From NCBI RefSeq assembly GCF_053078305.1, contig NZ_CP166879.1: 64,000 nucleotides of DNA; one strand, given 5' to 3'. Of this stretch, positions 12,665 to 56,197 are shown piece by piece. Numbering within the stretch: position 1 is the first letter of the stretch; every line of letters begins with the position of its first letter. The notes below the pieces were generated by a model. That model was not told where the DNA came from. It did no database searches and worked only from the letters and a program-made list of their open reading frames with translations. Made by a program: the position numbers and the translations under genes.

Positions 12665-12671
12665 AGGCCAA

Positions 12672-14542: not shown

Positions 14543-14570
14543 AAAACGCCGACCAATGGTCGGCGTTTTT
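14543..14570. terminator. Bidirectional rho-independent terminator (yjfZ / rplI convergent)
   Basis: ACGCCGACC-AAT-GGTCGGCGT hairpin followed by TTTTT; A-run upstream serves the opposite strand. Confidence 0.75.
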
Positions 14571-18259: not shown

Positions 18260-18436
18260 GATTTATTAAGCCCTGTTTATTTCCACTGATTTCAACAGAA
18301 CTCTCTCCACCCCCTTTAACTCACTTTAAAATAAGGTATTATCATAAATTCTTTTACTCTGGACGTAAACCATCCTCCATGATCATCAATATAATTTTGG
18401 GGGCTACTCTGGGGGCTACTTTTCGGAGTTAACATC

Positions 18437-22071: not shown

Positions 22072-22143
22072 CCAGGAAAAAGTCTTAGTCATCCCGGATT
22101 TTCTCTCATCCTCTTTCACTTTCATTTTCATATAGTCAGCAAC

Positions 22144-24488: not shown

Positions 24489-24556
24489 ACCCGTATTGTG
24501 TGCACTTGCCGGGTGCAGCACAGACGCCTGCCCCGGCCAACCATACCGGAACTGCT

Positions 24557-26635: not shown

Positions 26636-26646
26636 TGGAGCGCACT

Positions 26647-32692: not shown

Positions 32693-34783
32693 ATGCGAAT
32701 AACCACTCTGGCTTCCGTAGTCATTCCCTGTCTCGGATTTTCAGCCAGCAGCATAGCTGCTGCAGAGGATGTGATGATTGTCTCGGCATCCGGCTATGAG
32801 AAAAAGCTGACTAACGCAGCCGCCAGTGTTTCTGTGATTAGCCAGGAGGAATTGCAGTCCAGCCAGTACCACGATCTGGCGGAGGCTCTGAGATCAGTAG
32901 AGGGTGTGGATGTTGAAAGTGGTACGGGTAAAACCGGTGGGCTGGAAATCAGCATCCGAGGAATGCCAGCCAGTTACACGCTGATACTGATTGATGGTGT
33001 TCGTCAGGGCGGAAGCAGTGACGTGACTCCCAACGGTTTTTCTGCCATGAATACCGGGTTCATGCCCCCTCTGGCCGCCATTGAGCGTATTGAGGTTATC
33101 AGGGGGCCGATGTCCACACTGTATGGCTCTGATGCGATGGGCGGTGTGGTGAATATCATTACCAGAAAGAATGCAGACAAATGGCTCTCTTCCGTCAATG
33201 CAGGGCTGAATCTGCAGGAAAGCAACAAATGGGGTAACAGCAGCCAGTTTAATTTCTGGAGCAGTGGTCCCCTTGTGGATGATTCTGTCAGCCTGCAGGT
33301 ACGCGGTAGCACACAACAGCGTCAGGGCTCATCGGTCACATCACTGAGCGATACAGCAGCCACGCGTATTCCTTATCCCACGGAGTCACAGAATTATAAT
33401 CTTGGTGCACGTCTTGACTGGAAGGTGTCGGAGCAGGATGTGCTCTGGTTTGATATGGATACCACCCGGCAGCGTTATGATAACCGGGATGGGCAACTGG
33501 GGAGTCTGACGGGGGGATATGACCGGACCCTGCGCTATGAGCGAAACAAAATTTCAGCTGGCTATGATCATACTTTCACCTTCGGAACATGGAAATCGTA
33601 TCTGAACTGGAACGAGACAGAAAATAAAGGTCGTGAGCTCGTACGCAGTGTACTGAAGCGCGACAAATGGGGGCTTGCCGGTCAGCCGCGGGAGCTTAAG
33701 GAATCGAACCTTATCCTGAATTCATTACTGCTTACCCCTCTGGGAGAATCTCATCTGGTTACGGTGGGGGGCGAGTTTCAGAGCTCGTCCATGAAAGACG
33801 GAGTTGTCCTTGCCAGCACAGGTGAAACTTTCCGGCAGAAAAGCTGGTCGGTATTTGCTGAGGATGAGTGGCATCTCACGGATGCACTTGCGCTGACTGC
33901 GGGCAGCCGCTATGAACATCATGAGCAATTCGGGGGACACTTCAGTCCGCGTGCATATCTGGTCTGGGATGTGGCAGATGCCTGGACGCTGAAAGGCGGT
34001 GTGACCACGGGATATAAGGCACCCAGAATGGGGCAGCTACATAAAGGGATTAGTGGTGTGTCCGGGCAGGGAAAAACAAATCTACTTGGTAACCCCGACC
34101 TGAAGCCGGAAGAGAGCGTCAGTTATGAGGCTGGGGTGTATTACGATAACCCCGCCGGTCTGAATGCCAATGTCACAGGTTTTATGACTGACTTCTCCAA
34201 CAAGATTGTCTCTTATTCCATAAATGATAACACCAATAGCTATGTAAACAGCGGAAAGGCCCGGTTGCACGGTGTGGAATTTGCCGGCACATTGCCGCTG
34301 TGGTCAGAGGATGTCACGCTGTCACTGAATTACACCTGGACCCGAAGTGAACAACGTGATGGTGATAACAAAGGTGCGCCGCTGAGTTATACCCCTGAAC
34401 ACATGGTGAATGCGAAACTGAACTGGCAGATCACCGAAGAGGTGGCATCATGGCTGGGTGCCCGTTATCGCGGGAAAACACCACGTTTCACCCAGAATTA
34501 TTCGTCACTGAGCGCTGTACAGAAGAAAGTGTATGATGAGAAAGGAGAATACCTGAAAGCCTGGACGGTGGTGGATGCAGGTCTGTCGTGGAAGATGACG
34601 GATGCCCTGACGCTGAATGCTGCGGTGAATAACCTGCTCAACAAGGATTACAGTGACGTGAGCCTGTTCAGTGCCGGTAAGAGTACGCTGTATGCCGGTG
34701 ATTACTTCCAGACGGGATCATCAACAACGGGATATGTGATACCTGAGCGAAATTACTGGATGTCGCTGAACTATCAGTTCTGA
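32693..34783 (+). CDS. iha: TonB-dependent outer-membrane receptor, Iha-like (IrgA homologue adhesin / siderophore receptor)
   Basis: 696-aa ORF; signal peptide, TonB box (DVMIVSAS), plug domain and C-terminal aromatic beta-barrel terminus (NYQF); length and sequence recalled as Iha. Confidence 0.7.
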   Translation: MRITTLASVVIPCLGFSASSIAAAEDVMIVSASGYEKKLTNAAASVSVISQEELQSSQYHDLAEALRSVEGVDVESGTGKTGGLEISIRGMPASYTLILIDGVRQGGSSDVTPNGFSAMNTGFMPPLAAIERIEVIRGPMSTLYGSDAMGGVVNIITRKNADKWLSSVNAGLNLQESNKWGNSSQFNFWSSGPLVDDSVSLQVRGSTQQRQGSSVTSLSDTAATRIPYPTESQNYNLGARLDWKVSEQDVLWFDMDTTRQRYDNRDGQLGSLTGGYDRTLRYERNKISAGYDHTFTFGTWKSYLNWNETENKGRELVRSVLKRDKWGLAGQPRELKESNLILNSLLLTPLGESHLVTVGGEFQSSSMKDGVVLASTGETFRQKSWSVFAEDEWHLTDALALTAGSRYEHHEQFGGHFSPRAYLVWDVADAWTLKGGVTTGYKAPRMGQLHKGISGVSGQGKTNLLGNPDLKPEESVSYEAGVYYDNPAGLNANVTGFMTDFSNKIVSYSINDNTNSYVNSGKARLHGVEFAGTLPLWSEDVTLSLNYTWTRSEQRDGDNKGAPLSYTPEHMVNAKLNWQITEEVASWLGARYRGKTPRFTQNYSSLSAVQKKVYDEKGEYLKAWTVVDAGLSWKMTDALTLNAAVNNLLNKDYSDVSLFSAGKSTLYAGDYFQTGSSTTGYVIPERNYWMSLNYQF

Positions 34784-35429
34784 TAATAACAAAACGCTAT
34801 CACTGACGGTAGAATACGTTGCCACTGCAACTCCTGGCGGAACAGTGGCAACGTATTAGGTTAAGTGCATTTCCGATCCGCTAATGAGATTTCGTTACCA
34901 ACAACTAATATCGTCACAGGAAATGCACGGATTATTTTTAACTTATCATTTACATACTTGTCCAGAGTGTAAGCGCACCGTGAAGGACGAGGGGTAAAAA
35001 TTAGTTTACAGAGAGAGTGACGTTCCAGGGCAACAACTCTTTCATGCGGTTGGCAGGCCAGGTGTTGATTACACTGATCACGTGGCGTAGCCACGTTTCC
35101 GGCTCGATTCCGTTAAGTTTTGCAGCTACCGATCAGGCTGTACATCACTGCCGCACTATCGCTCGTCATCTCAAAGTCCGGTCTCGTCAGCAGGAAGGTA
35201 TCATTCTCTCCCGCCATTTTTCCGGAAGCCCGGTCAGATAAGTCCCTTTGTCTATCGCTGACTCCTGGCTCATAACCCGGTTAGCAGAATGCAGGGTCAC
35301 CACCTCGCCACGACCGAATCCGGATAAGTCAATTGCACCTTCTCAATCGCCATTTTGTCACAATTAAGTTTGATAAAGCAGGTCACTGAGGTGTACTGGC
35401 AATAGCGGACACTACCATTTGTTCTTTTT

Positions 35430-36248
35430 TTAAGCAGCCATCTGATGATATTTTTCCCTGAAGGCTGCCGGGGAGATATTCCCCAGACGAGAGTGACGAC
35501 GCTGACGATTGTAGAAAATCTCAATGTATTCCCGTATTACTGAGATGGCCTCATCCCGGCTCTTAAAACGATAGTGGCTCAGGCTCTCATTTTTCAGCGT
35601 TCCCCAGAAGCTTTCCATCGGAGCGTAGTCGTAACAGTTACCTTTACGCGACATTGATGTTTTCAGACCAAACTGCTCCTGTATGACCCGGTAATCGTAT
35701 GCGCAGTACTGTGAACCTCGATCGGAGTGGTGGATTAGCCCGGCAGGTGGGCGCTGGCTCCTGAGCGCCATAAACAGGGCTTTACCTGTCAGCTCTTTTG
35801 TCATGCGCTCTCCCATGGCGTAGCCGACAATTTCGCACGTATAAACATCTTTGATGCCAGCGAGGTACAACCATCCCTCCTGTGTGGCAACATACGTCAG
35901 GTCCGCCACCCAGACCTGATTTGGTGCTGTAGGAGCGAACGTCTGGTTCAGCAGATTTGGCGCAACTGGCAGATTGTGGTTCGAGTTCGTAGTCGCTCTG
36001 AACTTGCGTTTATGCTTACAGCGTAGCCTTAGCTCCTTACGAAGACGTGCCAGTCGGTCACGACCAACGATGATGCCATTCTCTGCCAGCTCCGTCTGGA
36101 GCCGCCGGGTTCCATATGTTTCGCGAGTGCGGATATGTGCCACCTTAATCTCCAGTTTTAGCCGCTCATCACTTTGTTTTCTGTCTGAGGGTTCATGCTG
36201 TACCCGGTTGTAATAACCGCTCCTGGATACACCAAATACCTGACACAT
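35430..36248 (-). CDS. IS600 OrfB (DDE integrase-core transposase; expressed as OrfAB by frameshift)
   Basis: 272-aa ORF with HSDRGSQY and SMSRKGNCYDYAPMESFWGTLKNE motifs. Confidence 0.88.
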   Translation of the reverse strand: MCQVFGVSRSGYYNRVQHEPSDRKQSDERLKLEIKVAHIRTRETYGTRRLQTELAENGIIVGRDRLARLRKELRLRCKHKRKFRATTNSNHNLPVAPNLLNQTFAPTAPNQVWVADLTYVATQEGWLYLAGIKDVYTCEIVGYAMGERMTKELTGKALFMALRSQRPPAGLIHHSDRGSQYCAYDYRVIQEQFGLKTSMSRKGNCYDYAPMESFWGTLKNESLSHYRFKSRDEAISVIREYIEIFYNRQRRHSRLGNISPAAFREKYHQMAA

Positions 36249-36283
36249 CGCTTCAATGGGAAATTGTTGTCGCCATTGTTCGA

Positions 36284-36586
36284 TTAACGCGTATTTTTCA
36301 GCGACTCCTGTGCAAAATACGCTGTTGCTTTTTTTAATATATCTCGCTCAAGGCGAGCTTCATTTAACGCCTTACGCAGTTGCAGAATTTCAGATTCCAG
36401 TTCAGCCACCGTGCGGGAACCAGGAGTACCGAGCCCTTTTCTGGCGGCGGTAACCCATTGTCCTAAAGTGCCTTCAGGAAGAGATAATCGGGAAGCGCCT
36501 TCACTGATCGAAAGTTGATTTTCAAGAACCGTTCTGACAGCTTCGGCTTTGAACTCTTTAGAGTAACGTTGGGTTTTTCTGCTCAT
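36284..36586 (-). CDS. IS600 OrfA (HTH transposase subunit)
   Basis: 100-aa ORF, HTH plus leucine-zipper-like region typical of IS3 OrfA. Confidence 0.85.
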   Translation of the reverse strand: MSRKTQRYSKEFKAEAVRTVLENQLSISEGASRLSLPEGTLGQWVTAARKGLGTPGSRTVAELESEILQLRKALNEARLERDILKKATAYFAQESLKNTR

Positions 36587-37071
36587 TATTAGCTCCTTCT
36601 GATGCCATTCTATTTCAGGAAGGAGTGTCCGTTAAACTCAGGCTACCTCACATCAGATGCCAACGCAACATTCCCTGCCATAAGCGCAGCCAGAACGCCT
36701 GTTACAACTAAACTATTCCTGGTGATATTGCTCATTCTCTTTCTCCATTTGTCGAGGATTTGGGCGTTGATTTTCGACGAGCTCCAGTTGCAACTCCAGT
36801 CTTAAGGTTATATCGGGATAGCACACAAGTGTTACACGCATAAACAAAAAATACCCAAAAAGTATTATTTCATAACATTTATTCATGGAAGATAACAATG
36901 AAACGATTCAGCTATATTTTTTAAACTAAAAAATACTTTATAAGAACATCCCAATTTTGGAGGCGATACTCATTCTCCCCCTGATAAATAAACACTCTCG
37001 TCCGACAGGGCGTGGAAACTATCAATAACCACAGTAATGATGCTGACTTTGTTTTCGTTTAAGGAAATGAC

Positions 37072-38628
37072 ATGCACGATTACCTGCTTTTTTTACTGGG
37101 ACTTACCCCCCTTCTGGCGATGATCATTTTGATTCTGAAAGTCAAAATGCCCATACACTATTCTGTGCTTAGCACTCTCCTGCTCACGCTAATCCTTGGA
37201 GGGGTTTTCTGGCAGACGCCAGTTATGGATATGGGATCTGCTGTGGTATACGGCGCAATCAAAGGTTTGTGGCCGATTGTGATTGTCATCCTTGCTGCCA
37301 TTTACAGCTATAACCTGATGAATGCGACAAAAAGCATGGATATTCTGAGAAATGTTCTAGCCAGCGTGAGCGATGATAAACGTATCCAGGTTCTTCTTAT
37401 CTCATGGTGTTTTGGCGGATTTCTTGAGGCGGCCGCCGGATACGGTACAGCGGTAGCAATCCCCATAGGTATACTCATTGCACTGGGCTTTAACCCACTA
37501 AAAGCAGCGATTGCATCACTGGTTGCTAATACAGTCCCTACAGCGTTTGGGGCAGTCGGTATACCTGTCTCCGTGCTTGCTGAACAAGTTAATTTACCTG
37601 TAACCACACTCAGCGGGACGATTATTCTTCAGCTGGCACTGTTCAACATTCTGCTCCCCTTCGTTATCGTCACGATTATCGGTGGAGGTATGAAAGCTAT
37701 ACGAGGCGTAGGGTTAATTACCCTGATGTGCGGTATTAGCACATTGATACCTCAGTATCTGGTGGCTGTTAATCTTGGCGCAGAGCTCCCGGCTTTCGCA
37801 GGAAGTCTTGTCAGTCTGATCGTTATAGTCTTTATGGCAAAAAACCGTAAAGAAAAAACAGAACCTGAATTTCTTATTGAGAGTTCAGCAGATAGCGCCA
37901 GCGCACTTTCATACTCTCGTGGGGCGTTGTTACGTGCGTGCTCAATCTACATTCTGATCTTTCTGTTCATTCTGCTTTGCTCTCCACTGTTCCCGACGAT
38001 AAAAAGTGCAGTGTCTCAGATTGCCTCGTCACTCACCTTCTCTCTGAGTAACGGCAGCAATCTGTCGATGAAAATTGAATGGATCGCAACCCCCGGTGTT
38101 CTGATTATCATTGCCAGTGTTATTGGCGGCTTGATACAGAAAGCATCCCTGTCATGCCTGTTAAACGTATTTGTCAGCACGGTAAAACAACTTAAAAACT
38201 CCATTATTGCCATTTCTGCGATTGTTGCCATGGCAACGGTAATGGATGTCTGTGGGTTGATTGGCACTCTGGCACAGAGCCTTGTGGATCTGACTGGTGG
38301 GGCCTACCTCTTCATTGCTCCGGTTATCGGCGCTCTTGGTACATTTGTTACTGGTAGTGACACAAACTCCAACATTCTGTTTGGTAAATTGCAGACTACT
38401 GCGGCTGAAAAATTGCATGTGGACCCGCTCTGGCTGGCTGCCGCAAATACATCTGGCGCAACAGGCGGCAAAATGATTTCTCCTCAGAGTATTGCTATCG
38501 CTGTTTCAGCCACCCGTATGGATGGTCAGGGCAGCGTAATCATGTCAGGAACACTGAAGTACTGCTTTGCTTATATTGTTATTCTTGGACTGAAAGTAGG
38601 CCTTGTCTACCACCTGTTCATGGCCTGA
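37072..38628 (+). CDS. lctP: L-lactate permease family (LctP) transporter
   Basis: 518-aa polytopic membrane protein with LctP-family features. Confidence 0.8.
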   Translation: MHDYLLFLLGLTPLLAMIILILKVKMPIHYSVLSTLLLTLILGGVFWQTPVMDMGSAVVYGAIKGLWPIVIVILAAIYSYNLMNATKSMDILRNVLASVSDDKRIQVLLISWCFGGFLEAAAGYGTAVAIPIGILIALGFNPLKAAIASLVANTVPTAFGAVGIPVSVLAEQVNLPVTTLSGTIILQLALFNILLPFVIVTIIGGGMKAIRGVGLITLMCGISTLIPQYLVAVNLGAELPAFAGSLVSLIVIVFMAKNRKEKTEPEFLIESSADSASALSYSRGALLRACSIYILIFLFILLCSPLFPTIKSAVSQIASSLTFSLSNGSNLSMKIEWIATPGVLIIIASVIGGLIQKASLSCLLNVFVSTVKQLKNSIIAISAIVAMATVMDVCGLIGTLAQSLVDLTGGAYLFIAPVIGALGTFVTGSDTNSNILFGKLQTTAAEKLHVDPLWLAAANTSGATGGKMISPQSIAIAVSATRMDGQGSVIMSGTLKYCFAYIVILGLKVGLVYHLFMA

Positions 38629-38677
38629 GAAAAAACAACAAAAGGACGTGGAATATTAATCAACAGGAGAAATTTCT

Positions 38678-39397
38678 GTGAATGTTAACTTTTTCGTCAC
38701 CTGCATTGGTGATGCGTTTAAATCCCGGATGGCACAAAAGAGTGTGCTGTTACTGGAGCAATTGGGTTGCAATGTCCATTTCCCCGAAAAGCAGGGATGT
38801 TGTGGTCAGCCAGCGATAAATGGCGGTTATGTTCGTGATGCCATCCCGGGCATGAAAAATCTCATATCTTCGCTGGAAGAGAATGACTGGCCGGTAGTAT
38901 CTCCTGCCGGGTCATGCACTTACACGATAAAAAATTACGCTCGCTATCTCAGTGAAGAACCTGAGTGGGCGGCACGAGCTGAAAAAGTGGCTGAACGCCT
39001 GCATGATTTGACATCATTTATAGTAAATCATCTTGGCATCACAGATGTTGGGGCAAAACTCAATGGTCGCGCTGTGTACCATCCCTCCTGCAGCCTTTCC
39101 CGTAAGCTGGGTGTAACCAGAGAGCCGCTTTTGCTACTTGAGAATGTACAGGGGCTTGAGCTACTGCCGTTTCACGCTCAGGAAACGTGCTGCGGGTTTG
39201 GCGGCACATTCTCTGTAAAAATGGCGGAGATCTCTGGTGAAATGGTGAAAGAGAAAGTCGGGCATATTATGGATGTTAAACCTGATTTTCTTATCGGGGC
39301 TGACGCCAGTTGCCTGCTAAACATCGGCGGTCGGCTTAACCGTGAAGGGCATCCTGTAAAAGTGATGCATATTGCTGAAGTCCTGATGCACAGATGA
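38678..39397 (+). CDS. lutA: Lactate utilisation protein A (LutA/YkgE-like, cysteine-rich CCG-domain Fe-S oxidoreductase)
   Basis: 239-aa ORF, GTG start with AGGAGA RBS; two CCG-type cysteine motifs (CCGQPA, CCGFGG). Confidence 0.82.
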   Translation: MNVNFFVTCIGDAFKSRMAQKSVLLLEQLGCNVHFPEKQGCCGQPAINGGYVRDAIPGMKNLISSLEENDWPVVSPAGSCTYTIKNYARYLSEEPEWAARAEKVAERLHDLTSFIVNHLGITDVGAKLNGRAVYHPSCSLSRKLGVTREPLLLLENVQGLELLPFHAQETCCGFGGTFSVKMAEISGEMVKEKVGHIMDVKPDFLIGADASCLLNIGGRLNREGHPVKVMHIAEVLMHR

Positions 39398-39407
39398 GGT
39401 AAACAGA

Positions 39408-40823
39408 ATGTCTTTGAAAACAAGTGATATCAGGTTTAAAGAGCGTATCCGTATTCAGATTCAGGACCCGATCATGCGAAAAGCTGTGGCTAACGCACAG
39501 GAGCGCATAGGGACTAATCGACAGAAAATGGTTGATGAACTGGGACACTGGGAGGAATGGCGTTCACGAGCTGAACAGATTCGTCGGCATGTTCTGGAAA
39601 ATCTTGATGCTTATTTGTATCAATTGTCCGAAAAGGTTACTGCGAATGGCGGGCATGTATATTTTGCCCGTACCAGAGAGGATGCAACCAGTTACATACT
39701 GAAGGTGGCGAAAGAAAAAAACGCCAGGAAGGTTGTTAAATCCAAATCAATGGTGACTGAGGAAATTGGCATGAATGCCGTTCTTCAGAAAGCCGGGATA
39801 CCCGTGATTGAAACGGACCTTGGGGAATATATTCTTCAGCTAGCACATGAGCCACCATCGCATGTGGTTGTGCCGGCAATACATAAAGATCGCCATCAAA
39901 TCCGCAGAGTTTTACATGAACATCTGGGGTATGACGGGCCTGAAACTCCAGAAGCAATGACATTGTTCATCCGTGAGAAAATCAGACAAGATTTTCTGAG
40001 TGCTGAAGTTGGCGTAACGGGGTGTAACTTTGCCGTTGCAGAAACAGGGTCAGTCTGCCTTGTTACAAACGAAGGCAACGCACGGATGTGCACCACATTA
40101 CCTAAAACACATATTGCTGTTATGGGTATGGAGCGTATTGCTCCGACATTCCAGGAGGTGGATGTTCTGATTACCATGCTTGCAAGGAGTGCTGTCGGGG
40201 CGAGACTGACAGGTTATAACACCTGGCTTACAGGCCCCAGAGAAGAAGGACATGTTGATGGTCCGGAAGAGTTCCATCTCGTTATTGTTGACAATGGGCG
40301 TTCAGAGATTCTCGGCTCAGAATTCAGCGATGTATTGCGATGTATCCGCTGCGGTGCCTGCATTAATACCTGCCCGGCTTATCGTCAGATTGGTGGGCAT
40401 GGTTATGGTTCAATCTACCCGGGGCCAATCGGCGCGGTTATTTCCCCATTGCTTGGTGGATATGAAGACTTTAAGGATTTACCCTATGCCTGCTCATTGT
40501 GCACTGCCTGCAATGGGGTATGTCCTGTAAAAATACCTCTGGCAACGCTAATACAAAAACATCGCCAGGTTATGGCAGAGTCTGAAATCACACCATTAAC
40601 GGAACGCCGTATAACCAGAGCATTCAATTACATAAACAGCCATCCGGCGTTGTGGAAGGTAGGTATGGTTGCTGGGGCCAAAACAGCCCGTCTGTTCATC
40701 AGGAAAGGAAAAACGCCGATTAGTGTTGGGGCGATAAAAGAATGGACTGAAGCCAGAGACCTGCCATCACCTGATGGAGAAAGCTTCCGTAGTTGGTTCA
40801 AGCGACATAAGAAGGAGGGGTAA
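39408..40823 (+). CDS. lutB: Lactate utilisation protein B (LutB/YkgF-like, 4Fe-4S ferredoxin + LUD domain)
   Basis: 471-aa ORF with two CxxCxxCxxxCP ferredoxin motifs (CIRCGACINTCP, CSLCTACNGVCP). Confidence 0.85.
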   Translation: MSLKTSDIRFKERIRIQIQDPIMRKAVANAQERIGTNRQKMVDELGHWEEWRSRAEQIRRHVLENLDAYLYQLSEKVTANGGHVYFARTREDATSYILKVAKEKNARKVVKSKSMVTEEIGMNAVLQKAGIPVIETDLGEYILQLAHEPPSHVVVPAIHKDRHQIRRVLHEHLGYDGPETPEAMTLFIREKIRQDFLSAEVGVTGCNFAVAETGSVCLVTNEGNARMCTTLPKTHIAVMGMERIAPTFQEVDVLITMLARSAVGARLTGYNTWLTGPREEGHVDGPEEFHLVIVDNGRSEILGSEFSDVLRCIRCGACINTCPAYRQIGGHGYGSIYPGPIGAVISPLLGGYEDFKDLPYACSLCTACNGVCPVKIPLATLIQKHRQVMAESEITPLTERRITRAFNYINSHPALWKVGMVAGAKTARLFIRKGKTPISVGAIKEWTEARDLPSPDGESFRSWFKRHKKEG

Positions 40824-40826
40824 TTT

Positions 40827-41525
40827 ATGGAAAACAGAGAGGAATTTCTCGTTGCGATCGCCAGAAAGCTTGGCAGACCAGTAAGACATATTCCCGAAGC
40901 AATGCCGGAGCCTGTAAATACGCTGGCTACGACACGTTTAACAGAGTTGACATCAGACCAACGCTGTGAGGCGTTTATTAAATTTGCCTCGGAAGTGATG
41001 CTTGCCGAGTGTGTTCTGGTGTCGCCTGAGAACGCACCATCAACAGCCTTAGACATCTGTTGGAAGTTCGGTTCCGGGCCAGTCATTATCAGCAACGATC
41101 AACGACTGGTCGATACAGGGATTACGCCATTGCTACAAAAAGAAATGGACGCTGCTCTGTGGGATCCGGAGAAGGGCGATGAAAATATCCATCTTGCTGA
41201 AAAGGCAAAAACTGGTGTCGTTTTCGCTGAGTATGGGCTGACAGAATCAGGAGGCATTGTCTTATTCTCCGCACCAGAACGTGGGCGCTCAGTAAGCCTT
41301 TTGCCTGAAGCATCATTATTTGTTTTACGTAAAAGCACCATTCTCCCCAGAGTGGCGCAGCTTGCGCAAAAACTTCATGATATGGCTCAGGAAGGACAAC
41401 GGATGCCGTCCTGTATAAATCTGATTGGAGGCCCAAGTTCTACTGCAGATATAGAACTGATCAAAGTTGTTGGCGTACATGGTCCTGTACATGCAACCTA
41501 TTTGATCATTGATGATTGCGATTAA
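40827..41525 (+). CDS. lutC: Lactate utilisation protein C (LutC/YkgG-like, LUD domain)
   Basis: 232-aa ORF immediately after lutB; operon context. Confidence 0.78.
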   Translation: MENREEFLVAIARKLGRPVRHIPEAMPEPVNTLATTRLTELTSDQRCEAFIKFASEVMLAECVLVSPENAPSTALDICWKFGSGPVIISNDQRLVDTGITPLLQKEMDAALWDPEKGDENIHLAEKAKTGVVFAEYGLTESGGIVLFSAPERGRSVSLLPEASLFVLRKSTILPRVAQLAQKLHDMAQEGQRMPSCINLIGGPSSTADIELIKVVGVHGPVHATYLIIDDCD

Positions 41526-41618
41526 CGATTGCTAATAAAAAAATGGCCTTAAGGTGATATTTCGTCTTGTGAAAAGGCAACAATAGACTAAAGGTTAGGC
41601 ATAATTGTGTTTCTTTAT

Positions 41619-41648
41619 GCCTCCGCAGCAATTTGTGGAGGCTTTTTT
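41619..41648 (+). terminator. Rho-independent terminator after lutC
   Basis: GCCTCCGCA...TGTGGAGGC hairpin followed by TTTTTT. Confidence 0.7.
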
Positions 41649-41728
41649 GCTTACTCCAAACAGTTTGGCTTCTTGAAAAAGTCATATCCCAAACCTATTG
41701 ACGCTTATAAAAAAGTAAAGAATGGTGA

Positions 41729-41957
41729 GTAAGCGTAAACTGACCACCGTATGTAGCCATGATGCCAGTATTGGTAACGTAGGTGCACCCCTATCTATTT
41801 TTGTAGAACCGGAGGAAACAGACCAGATAGTTTAAATGAGCTGGTTATACGTAACATAATTGTAAGCGTAAACTGACCGCCGTATGTAGCCATCAGACGA
41901 AAATTGGTAACTTAGACGCCCATCTGATATAGACGGACATCTAAGTATGGAATTACA
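41729..41957. repeat. Two tandem solo copies of an IS66-family terminal inverted-repeat segment
   Basis: GTAAGCGTAAACTGACC(A/G)CCGTATGTAGCCAT at 41729 and 41863, near-identical to the end of the IS66 element at 53769-53798. Confidence 0.65.
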
Positions 41958-41985
41958 TGAACCGCCCCGGAAATCCTGGAGACAT

Positions 41986-42211
41986 CTGGCCACCCTGATT
42001 CCTTCCCGTAACAACTGACGCCAGACTTTACGCACATCGTATACGCACGGTATCTTTTTCTTCAGCCAGTCATCACGCTGCGCACGGGCATTGCGTTTAT
42101 CAGGATGATGTCGCTGTTGCTGACAGTGGTAATACGTTGACGGGGCAATATGCAGTTCACTGCATACCGGTCCGATCCCGTACTGCTCACGCGACTTATC
42201 CAGCAGTGGCA
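41986..42211 (-). pseudogene. IS629 OrfB, truncated after ~75 codons
   Basis: MPLLDK...HIAPSTYYHCQQQRHHPDKR matches IS629 OrfB N-terminus then runs into the terminal IR. Confidence 0.7.
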
Positions 42212-42538
42212 TTATTTTTTCCAGGGGCGGTCGAACTCCGCCTTCGCAAAATAAGTGGAAGCCTGGCGAAGGATATCGTTACTGCGGCTCAGTTCACGAT
42301 TTTCACGTTCCAGCTCTTTCAGACGCTGACGTTCAGTGGTGGTGAAACCACCATCACCGCCCCCAATATCCTGCTCATGCTGGAGTACCCAGACGTGCAG
42401 AGTCTCCGGTGTACAGCCAATCTTAGGGGCAATAGAACAAATTGCTGTCCATTGTGAGTCATATTCGCCCTGACTTTCCAGAACCATACGAACTGCCCGT
42501 TGACGGACTTCGGGGGAAAAACGTGTATTTTTAGTCAT
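42212..42538 (-). CDS. IS629 OrfA
   Basis: 108-aa ORF MTKNTRFSPEVRQRAVRMV... recognised as IS629/IS1203 OrfA. Confidence 0.85.
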   Translation of the reverse strand: MTKNTRFSPEVRQRAVRMVLESQGEYDSQWTAICSIAPKIGCTPETLHVWVLQHEQDIGGGDGGFTTTERQRLKELERENRELSRSNDILRQASTYFAKAEFDRPWKK

Positions 42539-42752
42539 CCTGTTTACCTCTTTCTCAGGGAGTTTAGTCTCCAGGATTTCCGGGGCGGTTTAACGTTTAT
42601 AACAACTCCGACCATTCAAAATGGCCGGCGGGGTATAAATCCCTATCAATTTAACATTATCTCATTTGACATGAATAACGCCGTTTATCTATTTGTTGCC
42701 CTTTAGCTAGTTCATAGCAACCTAGAAAAATTTATTCGTTGCAATATAAATG

Positions 42753-44300
42753 CTACTTGCGTAGCGATAAAATTGCCCGTGCGGTTTCAGCACGGTTATA
42801 GATCTGCATTTTTTTTATTGCAGCATCCACATCTTCACCGCTTTTCTTATTCAGTTTAATCAGAAACTCAACAGGTAATAGCGAAGCTAAATTTTCAAAT
42901 TTTGATTCAGACCAAGTAATGGTTGCAACAGCCCCTTCAGTTCTCTTAATCATTAGTTTTTTAAGTAATTCTAAACGCTCTGGCTCAACAGTTATATAAC
43001 CAATCGGCAGGGTTAATGCACTATCAGAATTAGGTTGACCGTGGTATTGCACCAAAGCAATCACATCAGGAATTAAGAGGATCTCCAAACGATCAAATTT
43101 AGCCTCTGAAGTAAGGCCAATACCGGTAGGAAAACGACCTAAGTGCCGCTTACGCTCTTGACGTTTTTCACCTTCATCTGCACTTGAGTGTAAAAGCGAA
43201 ATGCGAGCAATCTTATCATCGGCATAATTGCCAAGTATATCGCCTAGAGCGCGAGTAAAACGCGAAAGTTGACTACCATTAGCTCCCCACAGTGGTACTT
43301 TACTGCTATACCACAGCGCTTTTGGAGCTGTTTTACCTATATAATCACGTAATGCATTATGCAACATACTAATGAACAGCTTAGAATTGTGCGGCAAATA
43401 AACAGCCCCTAACATGCCGGTAGTCAATGAAGTACCGTAGCCAGTTTTACGTTGTTCACGAGCCTCTATCCAGCCGGAATAGTTGAACTTATAACCATTA
43501 GCAAATTGTAACAACACTTTATCATTTGCTAGTTTACAGAAATCTTCACAGTCGATACCGAATTCATCTAGTTTATGTTCTCCCAAAAAATCTGCGATAT
43601 GAGCTTCCAGCTCGTTTGAAAGCGGCAGCCGGGTGTTACCTAAATATTCATAGGAACGAGTAAATTTCTGCGGCTCAATGCTCCCAGCAGAAACACCGTA
43701 GCTAACCTCTATCTCTATTGGGAGCTGCACCATCTCATGCGAACTACAGCCCATTATCTTATATAATTTAGTCCGTTGACGCTCATACTCGCTGTTGCGG
43801 CTGAGCAAAAGATGGTGCCGAAACTGGGAACTAAAAGCCTCTGTTACCGCAGCAGCATCTCCCCCGATCTGATGCCGCGGCAATAGCTCTGGCAGTCCAG
43901 AAGTAAAACGACGATTTGGTTGCGGTTTACATATCGAAAGAGTTAGTAGATCGAATGCAACTTCCTCCGTACATTCTTGATATTTAACTAAACTTGGCTT
44001 CCCACCATTATTAGCTGCATGCTTACGTAGGAATGAGCTAGCCTCAATATGCCCATCAGGATTAATGTTGATCAGTCTGTTAGCCAGCAACCCATCAAGC
44101 AATACCTCTCGCTCACGATCAGTTAGACCAAAGTAATTCTGTAACTCGCTGGGATAGAGTTGATCAAAAATCAGCAGCAAGCGACATGCAAACTGTTCAA
44201 TTCCAGGCATCAGTTTTTCAGTGGTCAAAGCGCAGTTGATCTTGTAACTACGCGCAGGTAGTAAAACGGTAATCAGATTACCCAGACGTGGTTCTGACAT
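42753..44300 (-). CDS. Hypothetical 515-aa protein, translationally coupled partner of the NERD-kinase-helicase gene
   Basis: Long ORF with start ATG overlapping upstream TAA (TAATG); no recognisable motif by eye. Confidence 0.8.
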   Translation of the reverse strand: MSEPRLGNLITVLLPARSYKINCALTTEKLMPGIEQFACRLLLIFDQLYPSELQNYFGLTDREREVLLDGLLANRLININPDGHIEASSFLRKHAANNGGKPSLVKYQECTEEVAFDLLTLSICKPQPNRRFTSGLPELLPRHQIGGDAAAVTEAFSSQFRHHLLLSRNSEYERQRTKLYKIMGCSSHEMVQLPIEIEVSYGVSAGSIEPQKFTRSYEYLGNTRLPLSNELEAHIADFLGEHKLDEFGIDCEDFCKLANDKVLLQFANGYKFNYSGWIEAREQRKTGYGTSLTTGMLGAVYLPHNSKLFISMLHNALRDYIGKTAPKALWYSSKVPLWGANGSQLSRFTRALGDILGNYADDKIARISLLHSSADEGEKRQERKRHLGRFPTGIGLTSEAKFDRLEILLIPDVIALVQYHGQPNSDSALTLPIGYITVEPERLELLKKLMIKRTEGAVATITWSESKFENLASLLPVEFLIKLNKKSGEDVDAAIKKMQIYNRAETARAILSLRK

Positions 44301-47300
44301 TAGTTGTTATCTCCAAGCAGACTTTGACCACACAGGATTTGGTAGTTGGGTTCATCTACTGCAACCTGTTTACTAATAAATTCATGAACGTTTCCAAGTG
44401 CTGAATCATTATTGGTCTTTGACCACATACGCCTTGCTCCCAGAATCAATAACCTTTCTTGAGCTCGCGAAATAGCAACGTTTATTCGCGGCGCGTCGCG
44501 CAGGAAACCTTGTAGTTTGTTGGGATTATCGCGAACCAGACTGAGGATAATTATCTTGTTTTCCTGGCCCTGATATGAATCAACGGTATCGATCTTGATC
44601 AAACCACGTAACGATGCAGCCCATTCAGCCCGACTGATAGCATTGTCAATTTCCTCTTTTTGCTGACGATACATTGTGATTATACCAATAGGATATGGCT
44701 GTTCTGTGGTAATAGTTTGCTCAAGCTGTGCAATGCAGCCATCACTCGACAATGACTGCAAAGCCTCTAGCAGTAGCCGGACTTCTCGTTGATTATAGTA
44801 ACGACCATTACCCTTATGTTCTTCTGCACCTGCTTCATTAGGGCTCGAACTATCGATCCAAGTAACAGTTTTGTTCCAAGGGATTGGTAACTTGGAATAC
44901 CAATCTGGCGAGACTTTCCTCGATGAATGCAGTTTACCGATATCTTGAGCGTAAAAGCACTCCGATACTAACTCGCCAATTGGTTCTACCATTCGATATT
45001 GAGTATCGAGTGTTACGCCGCCTGTTGCTTTAAAAGCACGTTCAAAATCAGACTCATAAAAGATCCCTTTCCCGAGTTCTAATTTCTTAGAGGCTAACTT
45101 AAGATGCTGTTGATGATAGAATGGTGGCAATTGTTTATGATCCCCTACCAACAGCACCCGCTTGCCTGATTGCAGCGCTACCATCAATTCAGCAGCTTGT
45201 GCTCGGCCAGCCTCATCAACTATTACCCAATCAAAGCTGGACTCAGCTAGTTCTAGTCGACGATTCCCAACACCAACAAGAGTTCCACAAACCAATCGCT
45301 TACTTTTGAACATAAATCGATCAAATCCAGCCTCGCCGCCGCGTAATACATCCATCCACTCTTGGCTCATTTCCAATAGCTGCATAAAACGTTCAAGGTT
45401 CTCTGGATTGTTATAATTGTATTGTATGGCAACTTGCTCAGCCAACTGTCTTATCAAGGTTTCATCATAGACAAGAGTTTTCAGCAAGCTGTCATCGAAT
45501 ATTGAGTTAATAATTTCTTGTGTTCGCAGTTTAAGCTGATTGCTTTGTTCTAATAATTCAGCCAGTCGCTCTTGATGACTAATACTACTACTCTTTATTT
45601 GTTCTACTTTATCCAGCTCACGGCTATATTGGCCATATGTCACCATCAAGGGATTCAGCGTACGATGTAACTGACATAACTGTTGGACTAATAATGGGGC
45701 CATCCCTAGGCGCTTTCCTAGGGAGCTAACTCGCAGATCATATTCACGGTGAAATTTATGCTGAATCTGTCGCTGAAGAGCTTTAGTTGCAACACTTAGC
45801 ATACCCTCATCAATCATAAGTTCATTACCAATACGTACTGTATCCAGTTCCATTCCTTTCGTATGGCAGAGCTCTCGAGCCTTGATGGCTACATTATCAA
45901 CAGAGGCATGGGATTGCCCGACCAAAAGAATGTTATTCACACCGCAATGTTGATACAGATAGTGAATAAATTTTGAAATAAATGTTGTTTTACCTGTTCC
46001 AGGTGGTCCCTGCAGAACTCCAACTGGTCCAAACTCGACCAACTGTTGAAATGCCATTAGCTGCTGTTCATTAAAACGTTGTCCAGGCTGATCATAAAGT
46101 GCGCGTAATGTCTCCGCGGATGGCCGCGGTTGCATTTGCTGCATGCAGGGTTTCTGGTGGTAATCAAAATACTGTGGCAGATGCTGGATCTCTGCTTTGT
46201 TTTCAATTACCCGTTGAAGGGCTCTTTGACGCAACTCTCTTGATGATTTGTCACGGATCGATTCCAATTGTAGCTGGCTGCCGCTACTAATTCGCTTACG
46301 AGCAGCATCAAAATCAAAGCGAATAGCCAATAGACTCGGCGTAGTCTCACTTAGCTGCAATTCCCCTAATTGCACTGATTCACGCTTATCTTTAATATAA
46401 ACAATGATCTTATCATCAAGTTCAAAGCTGAGGTCAGCACCGGATTCCGTAGTATATGGGTAGAGTAAGCAACCACTCGGTGATTCCTGAAAGTCAGTAG
46501 AGTCGATGTTGACTATATCTCGTAGGTCTACTTCTGTATCAGATAATGCCTGCCATAACTCAATTGGGCTTGACTCACTACTATCGAAGTCATCTTCATC
46601 CATCTCTTGATTAGGATTAGCTCGCTCAATGATGGCATCAATTACTGGCTCGAGGTTAAACAGTAGTTCAATAAAAGTATTACGCTGATTAAGTGAGCCA
46701 CGTTGTAATGAAAGTTGAGTATTAATTTTAGCCTGGGAATATTTACCAGCCTTTATACTTTCTTCGATCGATAATCCTTTTTCATACACTATTCTATTAA
46801 TAGTGCGATTATCAGGATCTAAGTCTATCAATAGCCGCTCTCCTAGGCCAGTGATGTAACAACGCAATTCATGCGCAAAGCGTGGGTTAGATGACCAGTT
46901 ACATTGAAAATAATAGATCCCATCATTTTGTTCTAGAAGCTTCACTTCTTGCGGCCAATCATCTGTGCCCCAGCAAACAGGAATTACCTTATCCTGTGAC
47001 TCAGACGCCACAACTTGATTAATCTCAGCTTGTTCCGGTGCTCGAATTGACTGCAGCAAAGGATCGAGCGCGATAGGTATACCGTCAACGGTTTGTTTTG
47101 CGCGTTCTAGCTCAGCCTGCACCAGTACTGGCATATCTTCACTAAATAGCTCCTCCACCATACGATATACTGCAAAGCAATCTCGCCCAAAAGCATCAGT
47201 ACTTTCGGGATTCTCTGGCTGGTAGCGATTATCTGCAGTTAATTCATCACTGAATTCAAGCAATCCAATCAGAGTAATTACTGTCTGCTCCCCGACTTGT

Positions 47301-49258
47301 ACCAGCAGTTTCTCTGGGCAAAGATCTCCATGAGGTAACTGCTTTTCATGAAAAGCATGAATGGTGTTGATCAACTTTTCCGCAATTGTAAAACGTTGGG
47401 ATTGTACTAACACGTTCTCAGCAATAAACTGTGACCACGGTAGGCCATCCACATACTCGCTCACTACATACAAGCCGCCTTGTCCTAATAGTCCATAGGA
47501 CTGCACCTTAGGAGTTGGCAGATTTATATGCGTAAGCTTATCGATCCGTTGCTTAAAAGCGTGGATACGGCGGTTAACACCAGGTTGTTGAGGGGTCAAA
47601 ATAACACCATCCCACAATTTTACCTGCAGAGCTTTCCCACCTTGTTCACAGTGATAACTGATGCTGCCAGTCGTAGCAATAGCAGCAAGAGCAGAGTAAA
47701 CCATAGACAACTGTTCAGGAAGTGGAGGAAACTCAATTAACACACCAACGCTGTTCATCCCTTCGCGAAAGAATTTGTTTTGCTTTAATTCTTGATAAAT
47801 CTGGTTAGCTTCATCAAATTCTTGGCTATGTTCCTTAGTAGCTGCATTAAACTCATTGAGCATTATGTCCGCACGTGGAAAGCGTTTACTTGGCTCAAGG
47901 TTAAGAGCTTGCTCAAACCAGCTATTTAGAATACCGCTAAAAGGATCAGTTAATGGAGCTCTCCATTCAGGCATCTGTCCAGGAGTCAGTAATGATTCAC
48001 CTGCAAAACAAATACGATAAGCAATTACAGCCAACATGAATACATCTAGGCGATAGGGCTCAACTGCTTCTTCAAAAGCATCTTCGGGCAAAATATATGG
48101 AGCACTTTGCAATGTCGGACGCAATGACTCTAGGCTATTATGTCCCTCCAGTGAGGCTGCGCCAAAGCCAGTAACGACAATGCTCTTCTGATCCCCTGCG
48201 TACCATAGATTGTGCGGGTCAATATCACAATGACTGATACCCAAGCTATGTAATTCCGAGAATGGAGCTAATAATGCACGAACGCGATCAATACGCTCAG
48301 ATTTACTCCATCCGTCAGCTTCGCTATCTAGAATCTCATCTAATCGGCTAAAACTACGGCGTAACTCATACAGCTCACGGGCATCATCAGTTATATCCTC
48401 CTCGGATAGTTCCCTTACAGCACGCAACATATAATCCTGCATAGTTGCGCTGCCATGACGAACTAGGCGACCGACTCGAGTCTCACGCAGAGCTATCTCA
48501 GCCCACAATGTTTGCATTGCGTTTGCTACACCCAAGGCATCAAAGTTCCACTGCCGTAGCAGACCTCTGTGTTGACTATTGTCTTTGTGGGTAGCCCTGA
48601 ATTCGTTGTAGACCATGTGAGGGTGACTAAAGAATGGCTTATCGTTCGCAAGATAACCGCTTTCTTTTAGTGGCAAAGGCCTGACTTTTGGTCCTTCAAA
48701 GAAGGACTTAATTATAGGTAATGCCTCATCAGAATTTGGTCGAGGCTTTCCCCCTTCAAAAAGATGAAAAAAGTTAGTGTGTTGCACCAGCTTTTCGTAA
48801 TTTTTTGGGTTACCTATAGTCAAGAATTCATCACGGGTATGAACATAGCGCCTCTCACTTAATGGCAAGTTTTCAGGACCAGCTGTGCCACACAGCACTA
48901 CATGAGCCTCAACATGCAAAAAGTAACCCAGCTTACGAGATAACTCTTCCTGCAACAAATCTTTTAGTCGCAGTGCATGCTCACGCTTGATCTGATAGGG
49001 ACTTTTGCCTCGTGACTTACCATTTTGCAGCCACTTCCCCCCTTCAAATGTGATGTTACCATTCCACTCTTTAAGCTCGACTAATAGCAGACGGTCAGCA
49101 GTAATAATTAGCATATCGATTTCCATCGACCCTTGGCTATCAGTAACAACTAAGCCAGCATAGCCAAACCAACTATCTGGTAACTGCTTAACCATCATAT
49201 CAACTGTTTTGGTTTCGCTGCGGTGCAGGCCAGCACCACCTACTATCTGATACTTCAC
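44300..49258 (-). CDS. 1652-aa multidomain protein: N-terminal NERD-like nuclease domain, two protein-kinase-like domains, C-terminal SF1 (Upf1/DNA2-like) helicase
   Basis: NERD-like D...ELK region (aa ~45-65); kinase catalytic-loop-like HCDIDPHN (aa 343-350) and HGDLCPEK (aa 643-650); Walker A GPPGTGKTT (aa ~1084), Walker B VIVDEAG, SF1 motif TVDSYQGQE. Confidence 0.85.
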   Translation of the reverse strand: MKYQIVGGAGLHRSETKTVDMMVKQLPDSWFGYAGLVVTDSQGSMEIDMLIITADRLLLVELKEWNGNITFEGGKWLQNGKSRGKSPYQIKREHALRLKDLLQEELSRKLGYFLHVEAHVVLCGTAGPENLPLSERRYVHTRDEFLTIGNPKNYEKLVQHTNFFHLFEGGKPRPNSDEALPIIKSFFEGPKVRPLPLKESGYLANDKPFFSHPHMVYNEFRATHKDNSQHRGLLRQWNFDALGVANAMQTLWAEIALRETRVGRLVRHGSATMQDYMLRAVRELSEEDITDDARELYELRRSFSRLDEILDSEADGWSKSERIDRVRALLAPFSELHSLGISHCDIDPHNLWYAGDQKSIVVTGFGAASLEGHNSLESLRPTLQSAPYILPEDAFEEAVEPYRLDVFMLAVIAYRICFAGESLLTPGQMPEWRAPLTDPFSGILNSWFEQALNLEPSKRFPRADIMLNEFNAATKEHSQEFDEANQIYQELKQNKFFREGMNSVGVLIEFPPLPEQLSMVYSALAAIATTGSISYHCEQGGKALQVKLWDGVILTPQQPGVNRRIHAFKQRIDKLTHINLPTPKVQSYGLLGQGGLYVVSEYVDGLPWSQFIAENVLVQSQRFTIAEKLINTIHAFHEKQLPHGDLCPEKLLVQVGEQTVITLIGLLEFSDELTADNRYQPENPESTDAFGRDCFAVYRMVEELFSEDMPVLVQAELERAKQTVDGIPIALDPLLQSIRAPEQAEINQVVASESQDKVIPVCWGTDDWPQEVKLLEQNDGIYYFQCNWSSNPRFAHELRCYITGLGERLLIDLDPDNRTINRIVYEKGLSIEESIKAGKYSQAKINTQLSLQRGSLNQRNTFIELLFNLEPVIDAIIERANPNQEMDEDDFDSSESSPIELWQALSDTEVDLRDIVNIDSTDFQESPSGCLLYPYTTESGADLSFELDDKIIVYIKDKRESVQLGELQLSETTPSLLAIRFDFDAARKRISSGSQLQLESIRDKSSRELRQRALQRVIENKAEIQHLPQYFDYHQKPCMQQMQPRPSAETLRALYDQPGQRFNEQQLMAFQQLVEFGPVGVLQGPPGTGKTTFISKFIHYLYQHCGVNNILLVGQSHASVDNVAIKARELCHTKGMELDTVRIGNELMIDEGMLSVATKALQRQIQHKFHREYDLRVSSLGKRLGMAPLLVQQLCQLHRTLNPLMVTYGQYSRELDKVEQIKSSSISHQERLAELLEQSNQLKLRTQEIINSIFDDSLLKTLVYDETLIRQLAEQVAIQYNYNNPENLERFMQLLEMSQEWMDVLRGGEAGFDRFMFKSKRLVCGTLVGVGNRRLELAESSFDWVIVDEAGRAQAAELMVALQSGKRVLLVGDHKQLPPFYHQQHLKLASKKLELGKGIFYESDFERAFKATGGVTLDTQYRMVEPIGELVSECFYAQDIGKLHSSRKVSPDWYSKLPIPWNKTVTWIDSSSPNEAGAEEHKGNGRYYNQREVRLLLEALQSLSSDGCIAQLEQTITTEQPYPIGIITMYRQQKEEIDNAISRAEWAASLRGLIKIDTVDSYQGQENKIIILSLVRDNPNKLQGFLRDAPRINVAISRAQERLLILGARRMWSKTNNDSALGNVHEFISKQVAVDEPNYQILCGQSLLGDNN

Positions 49259-55921: not shown

Positions 55922-56197
55922 CTATTTTTTATCTTCTTTTCTTTCTTGTAACTTTGCTTTTATCCAAATACCAATCCCTGCTAACATACCAGCCCCTCCC
56001 CCCACCTTTAAAGAATAAATAATATCTGCCCTCCAATCAAAAAATAAAACTTGAGTTTTAGAAAAAACTATCAGTCTACCAAGAATAGTACCTAACATTG
56101 CCATAAAAAAGATGCAAGCTATGCAGCGCATTATTAGTATGATAAGAATGTAAAAGTTGACACTCTTATTTATTTTTAATGGATTTATCAGCTTCAT
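55922..56197 (-). CDS. cdiI: Putative CdiI immunity protein (small polytopic membrane protein)
   Basis: 91-aa hydrophobic ORF immediately downstream of and overlapping the cdiA 3' end; start may be an internal Met. Confidence 0.6.
   Translation of the reverse strand: MKLINPLKINKSVNFYILIILIMRCIACIFFMAMLGTILGRLIVFSKTQVLFFDWRADIIYSLKVGGGAGMLAGIGIWIKAKLQERKEDKK

Follow-up and report, generated by a model that had tools for sequence, protein, structure and literature searches.

A horizontally acquired lctP-lutABC cassette predicted to give Escherichia coli a second L-lactate utilisation route

We analysed a 64,000-nucleotide (nt) stretch of contig NZ_CP166879.1 (the window, whose numbering is used for all positions below), in which a genomic island carries four adjacent genes, lctP, lutA, lutB and lutC. 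Taking the evidence together, we give a probability of roughly 0.8 to the reading that these genes form a functional, horizontally acquired cassette, which would provide Escherichia coli with a second route of L-lactate uptake and respiratory oxidation that does not depend on the core lldPRD and ykgEFG loci. The gene families are well known, and an accessory lutABC with a permease has already been reported in E. coli. What appears to be new is a predicted Cra-type box at a fixed distance from a −10 hexamer, located upstream of lctP across Enterobacterales.

All four genes are intact open reading frames (ORFs) in the same orientation (Table 1), a Shine-Dalgarno-like sequence stands ahead of every start, and Pfam and NCBIfam profile matches agree with the gene identities that had been proposed in an earlier note on this DNA. 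The gaps between the genes, which the same note had described as short, are 49, 10 and 3 nt for lctP/lutA, lutA/lutB and lutB/lutC, respectively. LctP matches PF02652 over residues 7–510 (432 bits, E 4e-129) and TIGR00795 with 407.5 bits, above the curated cut-off of 341.15, indicating that it is a full-length member of the LctP family (TC 2.A.14). The comparison with the core permease that the note had called for showed that LctP is 34% identical to K-12 LldP and that it stays under the equivalog cut-offs of both LldP (269.6 vs 918 bits) and GlcA (241.5 vs 1121 bits); it is therefore an orthologue of neither.

The three enzyme subunits were also assigned by profile matches. LutA matches PF02754 in two stretches (107.7 bits) and has nine cysteines, all of which are kept in 48 of 48 homologues; it also resembles the C-terminal halves of GlcF and GlpC, and its nearest solved structures are HdrB subunits. 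LutB reaches 723.6 bits with the equivalog TIGR00273, for which the cut-off is 444.8, and also matches PF02589, PF13183 (4Fe-4S dicluster) and PF11870 (LutB_C). Its two CxxCxxCxxxC motifs, at residues 312–322 and 362–372, are present in 48 of 48 homologues. LutC matches PF02589 (98.5 bits), gave no match in the NCBIfam search and is distantly similar to PDB 2g40. The structure search returned no solved structure for LutB, and only the distant HdrB and 2g40 relatives for LutA and LutC. A LutA-type protein with two CCG domains, a LutB-type protein and, directly after lutB, a LutC-type protein with a LUD domain are thus encoded contiguously and in one orientation, as in a LutABC system. RefSeq already gives the genes in identical DNA their correct names. 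An Rfam scan of 35000–43000 found nothing within the operon; its only match was an ALIL pseudoknot carried by an insertion sequence (IS).

From these assignments, LctP is predicted to import lactate, and LutA, LutB and LutC are predicted to form a complex of the LutABC/LldEFG/YkgEFG type. This complex would oxidise L-lactate to pyruvate and pass the electrons to the respiratory chain. The strongest functional support comes from the 65–83% identical core homologue YkgEFG, which contributes to L-lactate use when nitrate is respired (PMC9701030).

The operon is an addition to core ykgEFG, as had been supposed. The island LutA, LutB and LutC are 77%, 83% and 65% identical to K-12 YkgE, YkgF and YkgG, respectively, the DNA of lutB is ~72.5% identical to that of core ykgF, and the synonymous sites are saturated in the comparison with the core genes. 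In ~5,100 genome records, the best match to this lutB is a core ykgF-like locus. Co-occurrence with core ykgEFG and lldPRD was assessed in the closest relatives, the window strain itself being seen over 64 kb. A second, diverged lutABC locus is present in the closest genome, that of the chicken isolate GPEC1176. The 60 best matches included 52 chromosomes with the identical operon, and 50 of these have such a locus as well. Neighbour-joining trees place core YkgEFG with Citrobacter (100% bootstrap), as vertical descent predicts, and all island and plasmid copies in a separate clade of their own (100% bootstrap). Its diverged DNA, its site in the ascorbate (ula) operon and not between rclR and ykgH, and its separate clade set the island copy apart from orthologues of core ykgEFG. 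The K-12 ykg locus also has no lctP.

The cassette is mobile and is found in varied surroundings. Among 5,426 complete E. coli genomes, 204 (~4%) have the full cassette, compared with ~95% for the core set, and the whole cassette is also present on 61 plasmids. The 66 matching plasmid records comprise 63 conjugative plasmids, and they come from Escherichia (64) and Salmonella (2). In E. coli, the cassette alleles are 90–100% identical in DNA and occupy at least four different contexts: the iha-IS600 island of the window, a pheV island in which the cassette directly follows the integrase and lies beside a type I restriction-modification system (GPEC657), a site beside stcE-etp (strain 550), and a large plasmid with ehxA and espP. 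Both genomic islands and conjugative virulence plasmids thus carry the cassette lineage in E. coli, often with iha beside it. Our literature searches found nothing on iha-linked or plasmid-borne copies of the cassette, and literature on iha or pO113 with a lactate permease gave nothing relevant.

Synonymous divergence (dS) between the alleles is 0.25–0.5, far exceeding typical within-species core divergence, while the ratio of nonsynonymous to synonymous divergence (dN/dS) is 0.03–0.12, with lctP at 0.03–0.09 against the other alleles. The high dS together with the low dN/dS indicates that the alleles are old or were independently acquired and that they are held under purifying selection. The pheV allele of GPEC657 shares the longest flank with the window (36649–41861, 92.7% DNA identity), including a stub of a binding-protein gene upstream of the operon. 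Relative to strain 550, dS declines along the operon, being 0.25 in lctP, 0.14 in lutA, 0.12 in lutB and 0.012 in lutC. The window copy clusters with the pheV allele in the LctP tree but with strain 550 and MOD1 in the LutABC tree. This dS gradient and the conflicting trees point to recombination between cassette alleles, so that the window allele is a mosaic.

A further ~650 genomes, with islands of the iha-sat type of extraintestinal pathogenic E. coli (ExPEC), keep only a 520-bp internal fragment of lctP. In E. coli S14, for example, the fragment (7011–7520 of the stretch compared) corresponds to window 37350–37871 with 91% identity and is flanked by IS remnants. Its position ~3 kb from iha indicates that the linkage of iha and lctP is old or ancestral and that the operon was destroyed in that lineage. 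In the literature, we found nothing on how deeply the mobile clade has diverged or on decay of the cassette in ExPEC.

The collinear order lctP-lutA-lutB-lutC is the ordinary chromosomal layout in Edwardsiella, Pectobacterium, Samsonia, Serratia, Mixta and Kosakonia, and it is also native in Dickeya, Intestinirhabdus, Proteus, Budviciaceae and even Sutterella; in many Enterobacterales it is the only lut locus. The native Enterobacterales copies are 66–79% (LctP) and 77–85% (LutB) identical to the island proteins. Among GTDB species representatives outside Escherichia, no copy is closer than 79% for LctP and 85% for LutB. A search of 5.8 billion proteins added one relative, Serratia sp. PAMC26656, in which LctP, LutA, LutB and LutC are 86%, 87%, 91% and 84% identical to the island proteins and the DNA is ~80% identical. 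In the trees, this copy branches as the sister of the mobile E. coli clade (100%), apart from the native copy of Serratia marcescens. A LutB phylogeny had been proposed as a way to the donor lineage; the trees resolved a mobile clade of its own (100%), and no donor was found among the GTDB representatives or in the 5.8-billion-protein search. The Serratia sp. PAMC26656 copy is preceded at close range by a PAPS-reductase/DUF3440 gene and a ParB_N-like gene (region 6614–8454 of the stretch compared), which together recall the cargo of islands or defence loci. The local GC content is 0.42–0.49, which is low for Serratia, and this copy may itself have been horizontally acquired.

The operon ends in an intrinsic terminator, as had been expected: a hairpin at 41619–41642 followed by a T-run, 93 nt past the lutC stop codon. 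Its fold has −16.9 kcal/mol (z = −3.78), which 0 of 200 shuffles equalled, and it lies inside the segment common to the strain 550, MOD1 and pheV alleles. Upstream of lctP, we found the sequence AATGAAACGATTCAGC, which agrees at all core positions with the Cra/FruR consensus gcTGAAtCGaTTCAgc (PMC5888115, PMC7897506). It also has the operator pattern of the Cra regulon, GCTGAAnCGnTTCAGC in a promoter region, and it is the sole match at ≤2 mismatches in the window. Across 18 representative loci, which cover several Enterobacterales families and three island alleles, the box (≤3 mismatches) stands upstream of lctP in 17, compared with 0.07 expected from shuffles. The box is near-invariant among island alleles, with one central and two 3′-flank substitutions, in surroundings full of indels.

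The distance from the box to the predicted −10 hexamer is also conserved. A TATAAN or TAGAAT hexamer follows the box at 25–27 nt, almost always exactly 26, in 14 of the 18 loci (0.008 expected from shuffles). The block AAAAATACTTTATA is identical in all five island alleles, although the stretch from the conserved promoter blocks to the start codon has indels of 70–100 nt. Transcription is predicted to start at ~36951, giving a 5′ untranslated region of ~120 nt and placing the centre of the box at ~−46.5. A T-rich tract precedes the box, and the predicted lctP promoter has no recognisable −35 element, the box standing in its place. The geometry of the box and the −10 hexamer would fit an activator-dependent promoter, and Cra activates ppsA from a similar position. 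The four genes probably form one transcript, running from the −10 hexamer at 36939–36944 to the terminator.

The conservation of the Cra-type box across Enterobacterales suggests control by the Cra protein of the host. With no regulator gene of its own, the cassette would rely on this global regulator; it would be active when sugar is scarce and metabolism gluconeogenic, and would be shut off once fructose phosphates derived from sugars release Cra. Such control would explain how the cassette can work after transfer without bringing its own regulator. A regulator gene adjacent to the operon was considered as an alternative and dropped: the native loci of ten genera have unrelated upstream and downstream neighbours, with no conserved regulator gene next to lctP. 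Boxes of the FNR, CRP and PdhR/LldR types were also sought upstream of the operons, with only scattered matches at 2–3 mismatches, none of them positionally conserved. No Cra-type box was found in the upstream region of K-12 ykgE (the rclR-ykgE intergenic region, 2745–3270 of the stretch compared). The Citrobacter relatives of core ykgEFG keep a divergent lctP with a box at −96, and the E. coli core locus seems, from this comparison, to have lost both the permease and the Cra-type control region. We found no Cra-type promoter for lctP-lutABC in the literature, though regulon databases such as RegPrecise may already list one.

Several points, on the function here and on the promoter below, weigh against reading the operon as a functional second L-lactate route. 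The substrate, its stereospecificity and the electron acceptor, which we infer, would be extrapolated from homologues that are 65–83% identical or more distant, and structure searches returned no solved LutABC complex from which the catalytic mechanism of the family could be read. Deletion of ykgEFG leads to an L-lactate-specific, nitrate-dependent competitive defect in vitro, but the ykgEFG mutant has no fitness defect in mouse colitis models, in which LldD dominates (PMC9701030); the benefit of a second copy is therefore not a given. In addition, the reduction of the cassette to a fragment in ~650 ExPEC genomes indicates that it is dispensable in some lineages. These fragments, found beside iha and sat, and the missing in vivo phenotype of the core mutant would also suit a cassette that is passive cargo hitch-hiking with iha, unexpressed or non-functional and heading for decay. 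The IS elements that bracket the cassette, the truncation of its upstream neighbour by IS600 and a dN/dS of 0.62 for lutC against the strain 550 allele, a value from very few substitutions, point the same way. We nevertheless find such a passive role quite unlikely, since none of the four ORFs is disrupted and no cofactor cysteine is missing, dN/dS is 0.03–0.12 over a large synonymous divergence, all alleles retain the terminator along with the operator and promoter blocks, and 204 genomes and 61 plasmids still carry the full cassette in varied contexts. The enzyme and permease might instead serve mainly another 2-hydroxy acid, such as D-lactate, glycolate or another hydroxycarboxylate, and so add a new substrate and not redundancy. 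The low identity of LctP to LldP (34%, below the LldP and GlcA cut-offs) and the resemblance of LutA to the C-terminal halves of GlcF and GlpC leave room for this, and strong purifying selection on a redundant copy would be easier to understand with a different substrate or different conditions. However, LutB is far above the cut-off of an equivalog for L-lactate oxidation, competition assays show L-lactate specificity for YkgEFG, the nearest homologue to have been characterised, Bacillus LutABC and Shewanella LldEFG are L-lactate systems, and lctP-lutABC is the sole lut locus in many Enterobacterales, which together make another main substrate unlikely. That the genes are the only ykgEFG set of the genome, moved into the island by rearrangement, is hardly conceivable: the lutA-lutB-lutC order and the protein lengths do match ykgEFG, and the genome of the window strain is visible over 64 kb only, but the 65–83% protein identity to the core set with synonymous saturation, the separate clade with 100% support, the attached lctP that is absent from the K-12 ykg locus, and the second, ~72%-identical locus that GPEC1176 shares with almost every other chromosome bearing the identical operon speak against it.

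The binding of Cra to the box and the sign of its effect, which we also infer, face their own difficulties. On the window alone the box is not significant (1 match vs 0.34 expected), so the case for it rests on its conservation across genera, and that conservation is incomplete. Citrobacter, Tenebrionibacter and Proteus have no clear −10 hexamer at the expected spacing, and Serratia sp. PAMC26656, the nearest outside relative, has no box within 260 nt upstream. A generic promoter scan missed the proposed −10 hexamer and gave its best match at 36841–36868, upstream of the box; if this were the promoter, the box would be a repressor site. LacI-family operators look alike, having a TGAA-CG-TTCA-type core in common, so another regulator of this family could bind the box. 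The left half-site has diverged in Budviciaceae and Proteus. The main text of the Cra ChIP-exo study is silent on ykgE and lldP, although K-12 lacks the cassette and its ykgE has no box. It is thus possible, but in our view doubtful, that the palindrome is the site of another LacI-family protein or a repressor site below the 36841–36868 promoter and not a Cra activator site. With the outer C and G of cTGAA...TTCAg counted in, the longer match is specific to the Cra consensus. The fixed 26-nt spacing between the box and the −10 hexamer in 14 of the 18 loci argues for a site near −46.5 that is coupled to the promoter, and the match at 36841–36868 is not kept in the strain 550, MOD1 or plasmid alleles. 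Switching on under gluconeogenic conditions also suits lactate use physiologically. We therefore favour the predicted Cra-activated promoter for the cassette.

Compared with known systems, the island LutABC has the same three subunits as core YkgEFG in the same order, with near-equal lengths and the iron-sulphur/CCG cysteines in common. Unlike core YkgEFG, the island operon is mobile, has its own permease gene and a Cra-type box, and belongs to a separate clade. The native Enterobacterales operons have the identical four-gene layout and the same upstream architecture of box and −10 hexamer. They are chromosomal, and no IS or integrase was noted near them, though no systematic look was taken, whereas the island copy is bracketed by IS elements and carried as cargo on islands and plasmids; the E. 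coli mobile clade was found in no sampled genus. Bacillus subtilis LutABC and Shewanella oneidensis LldEFG are the founding members of the family, are needed for L-lactate utilisation and have the same architecture (a CCG protein, a LUD plus ferredoxin protein and a LUD protein), but they are distant in sequence. They have dedicated regulators, LutR in Bacillus and LlpR in Shewanella, in contrast to the global Cra predicted for the island operon. The island permease shares the LctP family (PF02652, TIGR00795) with E. coli LldP and GlcA, but its gene is linked to lutABC and to neither lldRD nor glc genes. The closest precedent is a report on uropathogenic E. coli of sequence type 127 (ST127), in which a lineage-specific accessory lutABC with lutP was described beside hsdMSR at tRNA-Phe, next to a peptide ATP-binding cassette (ABC) transporter binding-protein gene; the role in lactate use was speculative, with no experiments (PMC9769692). 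This region belongs to the cassette lineage of the window and represents its pheV allele. It differs in its sequence (dS 0.27–0.53), in its site, which is pheV and not the ula operon, and in its neighbours, which are a type I restriction-modification system, whereas those in the window are iha, IS600 and an anti-phage Mokosh pair.

L-lactate builds up in the inflamed gut, where its respiration via LldD raises the fitness of E. coli (PMC9701030). A self-contained lactate unit on virulence islands and on conjugative plasmids of Shiga toxin-producing E. coli (STEC) could be a niche-adaptation factor, and the cassette could mark particular STEC, avian and bovine lineages. The Cra-type promoter, if true, would place lactate utilisation in the Cra regulon in many genera. 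Combining these points, we put forward, tentatively and with more doubt than belief, that the cassette is a regulator-free, Cra-driven plug-in module that works on arrival in any Enterobacterales host. Cra is present throughout this order. The module would have been recruited repeatedly beside genes of colonisation and virulence, namely on iha islands, on ehxA/espP plasmids and at stcE-etp, would give STEC and avian or bovine E. coli a measurable colonisation advantage on L-lactate from the host or its microbiota, and would have been lost in ExPEC.

Table 1 Features of the lactate cassette and of the surrounding island (window numbering).
Feature	Position	Strand	Evidence or context
lctP, LctP-family lactate permease, 518 amino acids (aa)	37072–38628	+	PF02652, TIGR00795
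lutA (ykgE/lldE type), two CCG domains binding Fe-S clusters, 239 aa, GTG start	38678–39397	+	PF02754
lutB (ykgF/lldF type), LUD, two [4Fe-4S] motifs and LutB_C, 471 aa	39408–40823	+	TIGR00273
lutC (ykgG/lldG type), LUD-domain subunit, 232 aa	40827–41525	+	PF02589
Predicted Cra/FruR-type operator AATGAAACGATTCAGC	36897–36912	+	consensus match, cross-genus conservation
Predicted −10 hexamer TATAAG	36939–36944	+	26 nt downstream of the box
Intrinsic terminator, 10-bp stem (6 G-C pairs), 4-nt loop, T-run	41619–41648 (hairpin 41619–41642)	+	pattern scan, RNA fold
Tyrosine integrase	18437–19618		next to ulaE, left end of the island
Two-component system with UhpC-like sensor, and ABC transporter	19901–27693		island cargo
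iha	32693–34783		island
IS600, intact, 1264 bp (orfA 36284–36586, orfB 35430–36248)	35387–36650	−	Pfam/NCBIfam IS3-family matches
5′ stub of divergent peptide-ABC substrate-binding-protein gene, 28 codons	36651–36735	−	signal-peptide-like N-terminus
IS66 tnpA scrap	41851–41960		abuts degenerate IS relic
Degenerate, truncated IS629/IS1203-group element	~41982–42596	−	HTH_Tnp_1, IS3-family matches
Further IS66-family elements			island, after the Mokosh pair

The location of the operon on an island, which the earlier note had proposed, is confirmed by the integrase beside ulaE and by a GC content of 0.45–0.47 over the operon, below the ~0.51–0.53 of the flanking chromosome. The island is ~61 kb long and integrase-bearing in GPEC1176 (NZ_CM142791.1, 2921759–2983178), and window 16984–53583 is 99.87% identical to the island in the chromosome of this isolate. 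The left chromosomal flank is only ~98.6% identical to that of GPEC1176 and is differently organised, and the right end departs as well, indicating that the window comes from a related strain with the same island and not from GPEC1176 itself. The island site, as seen in GPEC1176, is inside the ula operon between ulaE and ulaD. The window contains no tRNA gene, which rules out a tRNA integration site. The left junction is at ~18212–18436, and the island parts ulaABCD from ulaEF, which should uncouple ulaEF from the ula promoter. UlaE was called by the annotation pipeline PGAP at 271 aa and is possibly 5′-shortened.

The flanking elements agree with those described earlier on one side only. Upstream of the operon is IS600, as had been stated; it is intact, RefSeq names it "IS3-like element IS600 family transposase" for identical DNA, and we located its ends and its imperfect inverted repeats. 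Downstream, where IS629 had been proposed, we found a truncated IS629/IS1203-like relic and not an intact IS629: its orfA (42212–42538) is intact, its orfB is broken by stops in translation and frameshifted, and it is only ~90–94% identical to annotated IS3-family/IS1203 copies over ~75% of the query. The ALIL frameshift pseudoknot found by Rfam lies in this relic (42141–42257, 107 bits). IS600 forms the junction of the iha module and the lactate cassette. Its left flank is the iha-downstream sequence of ExPEC islands and its right flank is the pheV-type cassette; because the flanks come from different modules, this is not a simple insertion. The element cuts the stub of the binding-protein gene at 36650/36651, and this stub is a remnant of an earlier context of the cassette; a search of the native loci for this donor context with the 53-codon pseudogene stub gave no significant match. 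A composite transposon was also considered and rejected, since IS600 differs from the IS629/IS1203-like relic and the IS66 scrap and since its own flanks are from different modules. The two IS elements are scars at recombination junctions.

Other cargo of the island was noted in passing. The module at 19901–27693 encodes a LuxR-type response regulator, a MASE1 histidine kinase, a UhpC-like sensor/transporter of the major facilitator superfamily, and an ABC transporter made of a binding protein, a fused permease and an ATPase; it is a second metabolic cargo of the island and, we presume, resembles the AfuABC sugar-phosphate uptake module. Directly downstream of the operon, on the minus strand, lies a Mokosh type I anti-phage pair (42753–49258), consisting of MkoA (1652 aa, 44300–49258, 1305 bits) and MkoB (515 aa, 42753–44300, 207 bits). 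In RefSeq these genes are named only "AAA domain-containing protein" and "hypothetical protein", and the pair is present without the lactate operon in other strains.

The remaining differences from GPEC1176 are at the two ends of the window. Window 1–6594 has no counterpart in GPEC1176 2903481–2920200, and the ~9.4-kb TetR/CoA-transferase/TRAP-transporter cluster in that stretch (~5115–14553 of it) is replaced by a shorter segment, ~11410–14537, in the window. Beyond 53583 the window is not collinear with GPEC1176, which has Hha, YagK/YfjJ-family genes and Ag43 there. At the right end of the window, a 2,606-aa ORF on the minus strand (56166–63986) with filamentous-haemagglutinin repeats and a PT-VENN pre-toxin domain appears to encode a CdiA-type contact-dependent inhibition toxin, and it probably continues past the end of the window.

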